10,708 bases of DNA from a virus (lineage: Duplodnaviria > Heunggongvirae > Uroviricota > Caudoviricetes): IMG/VR virus record IMGVR_UViG_2585427768_000002, positions 1 through 10,708 of that record. The stretch is one strand, 5' to 3'. The translations under genes were made by a program, and so were the position numbers. Shown here in pieces: positions 6,329 to 7,374 of the stretch. The notes under the pieces are model-generated. The model was not told the origin of the DNA. It made no database searches and saw only the letters and a program-made list of their open reading frames with translations. Position 1 is the stretch's first letter; each line of letters starts with the position of its first letter.

Positions 6329-6526
6329 ATGCTGAAACAGCAGGATATGACAGAAACCGCCAGAGTTGTGTTTGATGAATTAAGCGTTACCGAACCGGCG
6401 ACAGTCGGGGAGATTGCGCAGAATACTTACCTTTCACGCGAACGCTGCCAGTTAATACTGACCCAGCTTGTTATGGCGGGTCTGGCAGACTATCAGTGCG
6501 GTTGTTACAGACGCCTTCAGTCCTGA
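6329..6526 (+). CDS. small hypothetical protein (65 aa), possibly winged-helix-like DNA-binding
   Basis: ATG at 6329 with purine-rich AAAGGG upstream. Stop is embedded in a strong terminator hairpin. Sequence ...TVGEIAQNTYLSRERCQLILTQLVMAGLADYQ has a helix-turn-helix-like pattern. Function not recognised. Confidence 0.5.
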   Translation: MLKQQDMTETARVVFDELSVTEPATVGEIAQNTYLSRERCQLILTQLVMAGLADYQCGCYRRLQS

Positions 6527-6539
6527 AGGCTTTTTATTT
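6513..6539 (+). terminator. intrinsic terminator (plus strand) overlapping the stop of the small ORF
   Basis: Perfect 7-bp stem GCCTTCA (6513-6519) / TGAAGGC (6524-6530), loop GTCC, followed by TTTTTATTT (6531-6539). Confidence 0.6.
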
Positions 6540-6594
6540 GTGGTGAATGGGCGGCTGGTGGGGGGGCGACACCTGTCAGTCCTTTGCTTATGTG

Positions 6595-6625
6595 TTGATG
6601 ATAATTTACCTTTTGGGGCTATAAT
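6595..6625 (+). promoter_or_regulatory. candidate sigma70 promoter of the AraC-family gene
   Basis: Consensus -10 TATAAT at 6620-6625, about 35 nt upstream of ATG 6661. -35-like TTGATG at 6595-6600 with a long 19-nt spacer. Confidence 0.35.
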
Positions 6626-6660
6626 TGAGCTAACCAATTGCTAATGAAAGTAAAATTATA

Positions 6661-7374
6661 ATGGCTGTTGTCTGTTCAGTTATCATGGTTTGCTCCCCAA
6701 TTAATATTTTTCTTGAAAAGGATACGTTGTCACTTAAGCCAGGCTCAGTTGTTCTGGCCACCAAATGCATCAGGGAGCTTTTCCTTATGCATTATGGCAA
6801 AGTTAAAATTGTCGATATAAGCGAATCCGTCGTAAGTCAATATCTGGAAAGTCAGCATAAGCTGACGAGGACTCGTCTGACTGACATTCCGCTTTACCTG
6901 TTGCTGGAACCCAACAATCCTGCGTTGGCTGCGGCTTTAATTACCAGCCAGGGATTTTCCGGAGAGGCCACGGATATGTTTCTTATGATGGCCTGCCTGT
7001 CTCTGTTTGAAACAGATGAACGGATGTCATTGTTTTTAAGTGGATGTTTATCCAGCATAAGTGCCAAAGTCAGGGCGATAATTCAGACAGATATATCAGC
7101 AAGCTGGACGCTTGGTGCGATTGCTCTACAGTTGCATATGAGTGAGAGTTTGTTAAAGACAAAACTGAAAAATGAAGGGGGCATGTTCAGTCGCTTGTTG
7201 CTGGAAGAGCGGATGCGTGTTGCTGTAAATATGTTATGTTCCCGGCATGGATATGGACAGGCTATAGCAGAAAAATGCGGTTATTCAAGCAGGTCCTACT
7301 TTATTTCTGTATTTCACCGCTATTATGGCTTCCCGCCAGACAGATATGTATCCAGGCAAGGGCTTGATTATTGA
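6661..7374 (+). CDS. AraC/XylS-family transcriptional regulator, AppY/YdeO/GadX-like
   Basis: C-terminal region WTLGAIALQLHMSESLLKTKLKNEGGMFSRLLLEERMRVAVNMLCSRHGYGQAIAEKCGYSSRSYFISVFHRYYGFPPDRY is a canonical AraC-family dual HTH. N-terminus MAVVCSVIMVCS...IRELF...KIVDI resembles the AppY N-terminus as recalled. Lower GC than the flanking phage genes. Confidence 0.85.
   Translation: MAVVCSVIMVCSPINIFLEKDTLSLKPGSVVLATKCIRELFLMHYGKVKIVDISESVVSQYLESQHKLTRTRLTDIPLYLLLEPNNPALAAALITSQGFSGEATDMFLMMACLSLFETDERMSLFLSGCLSSISAKVRAIIQTDISASWTLGAIALQLHMSESLLKTKLKNEGGMFSRLLLEERMRVAVNMLCSRHGYGQAIAEKCGYSSRSYFISVFHRYYGFPPDRYVSRQGLDY

Follow-up and report, generated by a model that had tools for sequence, protein, structure and literature searches.

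The closest described relatives of the locus analysed here are PsrA and PsrB, two AraC-type regulators carried by prophages of E. coli. According to reviews, PsrB binds the hdeA promoter (from -132 to -45) as well as the gadE promoter and raises survival at pH 2.5-3.5, PsrA and PsrB raise GadE and YhiF, by which LEE type III secretion is indirectly repressed, and PsrA contributes to persistence in ruminants. The prophage sRNA HnrS represses Hha, and the mRNAs of both psrA and gadE respond to HnrS. Regulatory effects similar to those of PsrA and PsrB have also been described for AppY and PatE. The action in trans of a prophage AraC-type regulator on the acid-resistance genes of its host is thus already established for psrB. 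In the passages of Tree et al. that are quoted in reviews, the psr genes are associated with T3SS effector loci and Pch regulators.

The nomenclature of these genes is in conflict. Two reviews equate psrB with Z2104; for psrA, the reviews give z1789 in OI-50, whereas a 2026 paper gives ecs1087 in Sakai Sp4, and ECs1087 is called psrA by the Tree laboratory. In the re-sequenced EDL933 genome (NZ_CP008957, 1625000-1674000), a search of the CP-933N/OI-50 region and the 49 kb beyond it gave no psr homologue, and the interval between Q and the esterase in CP-933N/OI-50 is occupied by a TerB-family pseudogene instead of psr. Further literature matches for psrA and psrB were confined to unrelated genes named 'Psr'.

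Layout of the Window and Its Prophage Context

The window, i.e., the whole stretch of 10,708 nucleotides that was analysed, represents the late-regulatory region of a lambdoid prophage. From its left end, the gene order runs through Ea22-like, KilA-N, and DUF968 genes to the gene of a Q antiterminator (3319-3690), which is followed by two minus-strand genes (3670-6062), a small ORF (6329-6526), and an AraC-family ORF (6661-7374); the right part holds three tRNAs (7403-7652), a NanS-p-type esterase gene (8141-10102), and then the start of the lysis region. The features on which the sequence-only reading was built, namely the 65-aa ORF, the terminator at 6513-6539, the TATAAT at 6620-6625, and the AraC-family ORF, are all present where they had been placed. 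Just past the esterase gene, a weak Rfam match to the EHEC sRNA Esr41 (10104-10178, minus strand; 26 bits, gathering score 102, E 0.14) is probably due to chance.

Positions 1152-10539 of the window are 99.9-100% identical to a non-Stx prophage of O104:H4 strains and their relatives, and prophages of ExPEC (e.g. S88) are about 97% identical with the defence genes swapped. The window is covered in full by no complete E. coli genome of the collection, the best matches spanning 1152-10539 only, so that the source prophage is a mosaic, unlike the O104:H4-lineage prophage at both ends.

The minus-strand genes are as follows:

3670-6062, minus strand: DS1_2 and DS1_1 gene pair, AT-rich (33-37% G+C), assigned by NCBIfam models

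One of the two matches the NCBIfam model 'DS1_2 anti-phage protein' (375 bits, cut-off 315) and the other the model 'DS1_1 nucleoid-associated anti-phage protein' (451 bits, cut-off 330) together with Pfam NA37; PADLOC 2023 has no model for any of the four proteins tested, the DS-1 pair among them. The pair adjoins Q on its left, where its first gene shares 21 nt with the 3' end of Q, and a candidate pR'-like block on its right. The same position is taken by a CAAX protease in Sakai Sp4, nmpC in DLP12, a GIY-YIG nuclease in phiP27, and a WYL-domain protein in S88, and the slot between Q and the pR'-like block looks like a hot spot of exchange.

Identity, Integrity, and Distribution of psrB

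6661..7374, plus strand: psrB, encoding a 237-aa AraC-family regulator (Pfam HTH models; identity to the EDL933 OI-57 copy)

The AraC/XylS family is defined by a C-terminal DNA-binding domain of about 100 aa with two helix-turn-helix motifs. Residues 155-230 of the 237-aa protein score 50.3 bits against PF00165 (HTH_AraC, cut-off 26.6) and 39.8 bits against PF12833 (HTH_18, cut-off 33.6), both above the cut-offs, which places the protein in this family. It has the same length as the psr homologue of EDL933 OI-57, the only one in that region, and is identical to it at 234 of 237 residues (98.7%); the three substitutions relative to EDL933 PsrB (A103V, H196Y, and I202V) each introduce a residue that also occurs in other family members. 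The gene was tied to Z2104 by means of a published Z2104 primer pair (PMC4763077), which matches the window at 6921-7078 with 0 mismatches and reproduces the published 158-bp amplicon; the primers also match the EDL933 copy and have no match in Sakai psrA. The protein is 90.7% identical to that of Sakai ECs1087/psrA, in agreement with the published PsrA/PsrB identity of 90%, which further supports the assignment. By these comparisons, the AraC-type gene is an intact allele of psrB (Z2104).

The placement of the regulator in an AppY/YdeO-like group, as proposed from the sequence alone, was borne out when the protein was compared with AppY, YdeO, GadX, and PatE as had been suggested. Full-length amino-acid identity amounts to 37% with PatE, 35% with GadW, 31% with YdeO, and 29% with AppY, and GadX aligns over the C-terminal half only (41% identity over 129 residues). 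PatE, GadW, YdeO, and AppY all align with it from Met1 and share the N-terminal motif MxxVCSVI, from which it follows that the N-terminal domain is complete; the truncated pseudogene that would have undone the earlier interpretation is ruled out. The scores against the NCBIfam equivalog models lie far below the cut-offs for YdeO (108.5 bits, cut-off 348) and GadX (87, cut-off 500), so that the protein is a relative of both and an orthologue of neither. PatE (Z0321), AppY, GadW, YdeO, and GadX resemble PsrB in domain plan and, according to the literature, in having gadE and hdeA as targets; PatE and AppY differ from it in location, being encoded at a prophage end, whereas psrB of the window lies in the Q-to-lysis region.

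Of 5426 complete E. coli genomes, 726 (~13%) contain genes of the psr family, with a median of two copies, and 595 genomes have a copy at least 99% identical to that of the window; the copies listed are all annotated as intact. psrB is flanked by Q, DUF968, KilA-N, tRNA, NanS-p, holin, and terminase genes, i.e., it lies in a lambdoid prophage. The G+C content of psrB and its 5' region (39-45%) is lower than that of the flanking phage genes and is compatible with silencing by H-NS/Hha.

The neighbourhood of EDL933 PsrB (Z2104, OI-57/CP-933O) is the same as here, consisting of the 65-aa ORF, psr, ileZ with arg tRNAs, and the NanS-p esterase. The backbones differ, in that EDL933 has a DUF1133 protein at the Q position, where the window has a Q21-family Q and the DS-1 defence pair, and so do the hosts, O157:H7 for EDL933 psrB and O104:H4-lineage strains for the closest whole-window matches. 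Sakai Sp4 PsrA (ECs1087) occupies the same slot upstream of ileZ-argN-argO behind the same promoter region and represents a distinct allele; the Sakai record starts psrA at an internal Met (195 aa), and the small ORF next to it carries a frameshift.

Strains of the O104:H4 lineage lack the LEE, so the type III secretion half of the published PsrB phenotype is inapplicable to them and only the acid-resistance arm could apply. It might accordingly be asked whether psrB of the window is a decaying or orphaned gene in a LEE-negative background with no regulon left, a reading suited by the closest full-length matches of the window, which are O104:H4-lineage and ExPEC prophages. In its favour as well, the surroundings of the identical FORC_069 copy do not show the effector loci with which psr genes are associated in the literature: the 19 kb examined there contain no effector gene, as is also true of the window, and only a generic PerC-family gene lies upstream. 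Against it stand the intact psrB ORF with its complete N-terminal domain, the uniformly intact annotation of the listed copies, and the nature of the targets: gadE and hdeA belong to the core acid-fitness island of E. coli, so that direct targets of PsrB exist in any E. coli. Taken together, an orphaned psrB seems very unlikely, and an intact, functional regulator is the preferred reading.

The Small ORF and Its Terminator

6329..6526, plus strand: small ORF, encoding a 65-aa stand-alone winged-helix-like protein (PHROG 331, E 6e-37)
6513..6539, plus strand: intrinsic-terminator-like hairpin with U-tract over the stop codon of the small ORF (scan, fold)

Relatives of the small ORF carry the PGAP label 'TrmB family', and the ORF itself scores 17.8 bits against Pfam TrmB, under the gathering cut-off of 25.6 (E 0.003). 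Its homologues (n = 295) are distributed over Escherichia, Shigella, Salmonella, Klebsiella, Citrobacter, and Buttiauxella. In an alignment of 24 sequences, the proteins are 78-93% identical to that of the window. Nucleotide substitutions in the ORF fall mostly in third codon positions (e.g. 2, 3, and 13 over the three positions). Judged by this conservation, the small ORF is a real, conserved gene.

In the AF2 model of the protein (pLDDT 80), the C-terminal 'wing' takes the form of a helix predicted with low confidence, and the three-helix core superposes on the wHTH domains of IclR-type PcaR, IscR, Z-alpha, and PefI (TM 0.64-0.73, rmsd 1.3-1.7 A), on account of which the earlier description of the ORF as 'HTH-like' is a fair one. 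The Foldseek probabilities reach 0.99 with E values of at least 0.3, which, the protein being so small, fall short of significance, and a profile search against the PDB sequences returned nothing meaningful.

The hairpin GCCTTCAGTCCTGAAGGC at 6513-6530, followed by TTTTTATTTG, overlaps the TGA stop codon of the small ORF and has a folding energy of -11.1 kcal/mol. Its 7-bp stem includes 4 G-C pairs and encloses a 4-nt loop, after which comes UUUUUAUUU, so that 6513-6539 presents the G+C-containing hairpin directly before a U-tract by which intrinsic terminators are recognised. The sequence-only reading had called this a 'strong' terminator; a terminator-like hairpin and T-tract do exist there, but the strength was overstated in view of this stem. 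Terminator-like sites are enriched in the region 5900-8200 (11 found, 2.2 +/- 1.5 expected). The hairpin is kept in all contexts of the small ORF, including those in which a DNA methylase gene follows, with changes in the loop only, and its retention ahead of the methylase assigns the terminator to the module of the small ORF. The EDL933 copy has a mismatch in the stem.

In Sakai Sp4, the small ORF (ECs1086, 23344-23583 of the Sp4 extract L007) has a 1-nt deletion, by which the C-terminal 16 residues are altered and the product becomes 79 aa long; this copy of the protein is probably inactive.

The Q Gene and a Candidate Late Promoter Region

3319..3690 (PGAP start 3334), plus strand: Q antiterminator gene, Q21/QuuD family (Pfam PF06530, E 3e-47)
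6126..6204, plus strand: conserved non-coding block with a GC-rich hairpin (6183-6198) and T6 at its end (multi-locus conservation)
6238..6268, plus strand: second terminator-like hairpin with a T-run, in the leader before the small ORF (scan; weak fold, z -0.4)

The standard Q cassette is composed of Q, pR', a pause element, a terminator, and the late genes. The Q protein of the window is 45% identical to QuuD of K-12 and 43% to Q of Sakai Sp4, and its homology to the solved Q21 structure 6P18 is distant (E 0.0013). As the Q gene is immediately followed by the minus-strand pair, any late promoter must lie past 6062.

Downstream of that position, the conserved block 6126-6204 ends in CCCGCCACTGAGCGGG plus T6, with a hairpin that scored as terminator-like, and is present in 287 phage records. 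Copies were located at 13200-13277 of extract L009, 23142-23231 of L007 (Sakai Sp4), and 3880-3956 of L012. The block follows the CAAX-protease gene in Sakai Sp4 and nmpC in K-12 DLP12, where it lies upstream of essD, and both of these loci have QuuD-type Q genes; in the Stx2a phage Stx2_14040 it extends from 16 to 95 nt past the Q stop codon. At loci with other types of Q, conservation sets in only from the hairpin rightwards. The block forms the left edge of a shared downstream module, and from its position and its co-occurrence with the type of Q, it is a candidate pR'/pause/tR' region for a Q21-type Q. When five versions of 6126-6204 were aligned and inspected by eye, no consistent -35 was seen and the pause element was not assignable; a conserved TATnnT lies 0-2 nt before GTTAAGAG. 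If the block is indeed pR'-tR', transcription would yield a short terminated RNA, some 50-60 nt long and comparable to StxS.

Conservation of the leader between the block and the small ORF (6223-6316) extends to five other loci, one of them EDL933 CP-933N, in which the small ORF is absent. On the plus strand of 6063-6328, no sigma-70-like promoter was detected at the scan threshold, hence none ahead of the small ORF. The latter is the first ORF past the candidate tR', and it keeps its position between Q and stx in Stx2a, Stx2e (phiP27), and Stx2k phages; in an Stx2k phage and STEC388, the whole module of small ORF, psr, and tRNAs lies between Q and stx2k. The small ORF and psrB share the late strand and lie in the interval from Q to the lysis genes, past the candidate tR'; once the prophage is induced, Q-modified polymerase should therefore transcribe through both. 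Of the Q-dependent late genes, the small ORF is most likely the first.

The Promoter-like Site of psrB and Its Right-hand Flank

6598..6625, plus strand: sigma-70 promoter-like site ahead of psrB (pattern scan and comparison of psr loci)
7364..7392, plus strand: promoter-like site TTGATT, 17 nt, TATTAT (pattern match only)
7403..7652, plus strand: tRNA cluster of the ileZ-argN-argO type (tRNA calls, RefSeq comparison)
7667..7692, plus strand: terminator 3' of the tRNA cluster (scan; fold -11.4 kcal/mol, z -3.3)

The site ahead of psrB reads ATGATA, 16 nt, TATAAT (6620-6625) and matches the consensus at 10 of 12 positions, the -35 at only 4 of 6; the Shine-Dalgarno sequence of psrB is weak. Promoter-like sites are not enriched in 5900-8200 (5 found, 3.5 +/- 1.8 expected), so that the match by itself means little and comparative support is needed. 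Such support is offered by the psr loci: seven of them, down to 86% DNA identity, share an unchanged TATAAT and most of the 60 nt before it, and in strain A34 the promoter region has moved with the gene into another context. Of the small ORF and psrB, only the latter has a credible promoter of its own.

These observations also bear on whether both genes might be purely Q-dependent and silent in the lysogen, with the TATAAT arising as a chance match. The location of the two genes on the late strand, between Q and lysis and downstream of the candidate tR', would suit this, as would the lack of enrichment of promoter-like matches in the region. It is countered by the literature, in which phenotypes of psrA and psrB deletion and complementation, and HnrS-dependent changes of the psrA mRNA as well, were obtained from uninduced cultures, and by the -10 hexamer, invariant across diverged psr copies and mobile with the gene. 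For the two genes together we regard pure Q dependence as unlikely; for the small ORF alone it is preferred. The sequence-only reading had taken both to be autonomous transcription units rather than Q-dependent late genes, which is at most half right: psrB has its promoter-like site with the invariant -10, no promoter was found for the small ORF, and both genes lie past the candidate tR'.

On the right, the promoter-like site at 7364-7392 overlaps the 3' end of psrB just before the tRNA cluster, and the scan for terminator-like sites revealed no convincing terminator between psrB and that cluster. The tRNA with a CAT anticodon at 7403-7478 (plus strand) is called Met by ARAGORN and annotated as tRNA-Ile (ileZ) in RefSeq for EDL933, Sakai, and FORC_069. 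The stretch from the tRNA cluster to the NanS-p esterase gene contains a strong match to the Rfam sRNA family STnc100 at 7728-7918 (plus strand; 140 bits, gathering score 47, E 1e-31). The EHEC sRNA EvrS is encoded between z1789 (psr) and the esterase gene z1793 (PMC11774850), and the STnc100 match is like it in position, the two being set side by side by position alone.

Two Modules and a Cargo Slot

The small ORF had been grouped with the regulator as one 'regulatory cargo', and the question arises whether they form a co-evolved functional pair on one cassette. That the two are same-strand neighbours in the window, EDL933 OI-57, Sakai Sp4, and the Stx2k phages would speak for such a pair. 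The distribution of the two genes, in contrast, separates them: with 2843 of 5426 genomes, the small ORF is about four times commoner than psr with its 726, and several phages (the EDL933 ompW prophage, the Stx2a phage Stx2_14040, and phiP27) carry a DNA methylase gene and then the tRNAs behind the small ORF and its terminator. Strain A34, conversely, lacks the small ORF at its psr locus, where a tR'-like hairpin immediately precedes psr. Moreover, the small ORF of Sakai Sp4 is frameshifted, yet the adjacent psrA is functional according to the literature. The terminator and a module boundary also part the two genes, as homology to psr-lacking phages ends near 6562 and homology among the psr loci begins near 6565. 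A functional pair is thus already largely refuted by the distribution and is considered highly improbable, and the grouping into a single cargo is not supported.

By the comparison of loci, the small ORF and psrB are two independent modules. The explanation that we hold with good confidence is that the late region contains a backbone gene, the small ORF, and a moron, psrB, which would be equipped with its own promoter and encode the acid-resistance activator PsrB. Module 1 (~6205-6562) belongs to the phage backbone and comprises the conserved leader, the 65-aa winged-helix-like protein, and the terminator; since it adjoins the candidate pR'/tR' of a Q21-family antiterminator, it would be transcribed mainly when Q permits read-through of tR', which would also set the timing of its expression. 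Module 2 (~6565-7400) is the moron, made up of psrB and its own upstream stretch of about 95 nt, in which the consensus -10 lies. Distribution and module boundary together point to the interval from the small-ORF terminator to ileZ as a cargo slot, which holds psrB here and the DNA methylase gene in other phages.

Regarding expression, we infer that in the lysogen psrB is insulated from pR' by up to three upstream terminators and transcribed from its own promoter, and that on induction it would also join the Q-dependent late transcript by read-through. Regarding function, the targets are those of the literature: in view of its near-identity to the EDL933 protein, PsrB would act as an AraC-like activator that binds the gadE and hdeA promoters and switches on glutamate-dependent acid resistance, and in LEE-positive strains it would lower type III secretion through GadE and YhiF. 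The earlier suggestion that the regulator acts on host genes in trans is right by the published work on gadE and hdeA and hence describes what was already known; psrB is an already characterised gene. In its arrangement, psrB resembles the late morons of Stx phages (stx, and the DNA methylase gene in the same slot), which likewise lie between pR'/tR' and the lysis genes and can combine a promoter of their own with Q read-through; the difference is that the cargo here is a host-directed transcription factor in place of a toxin or methylase.

Implications

psrB occurs essentially unchanged outside O157:H7, including in prophages of the O104:H4 lineage and ExPEC, which adds little beyond what is known of the gene. 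The architecture of the region is more informative in that the stretch from Q to lysis has two exchange slots, one for defence genes or morons before the pR'-like block and one for psr or methylase genes before ileZ, and also holds a widely conserved small winged-helix-like gene without a described function. One speculative extension, to which we assign a low probability, is that the small-ORF protein is a late-region regulator tuning Q-dependent read-through and, as a separate matter, that the PsrB regulon in LEE-negative lineages such as O104:H4 is larger than gadE and hdeA. If the small-ORF protein does act in this way, Shiga toxin and the lysis genes would be affected in the timing or the level of their expression.
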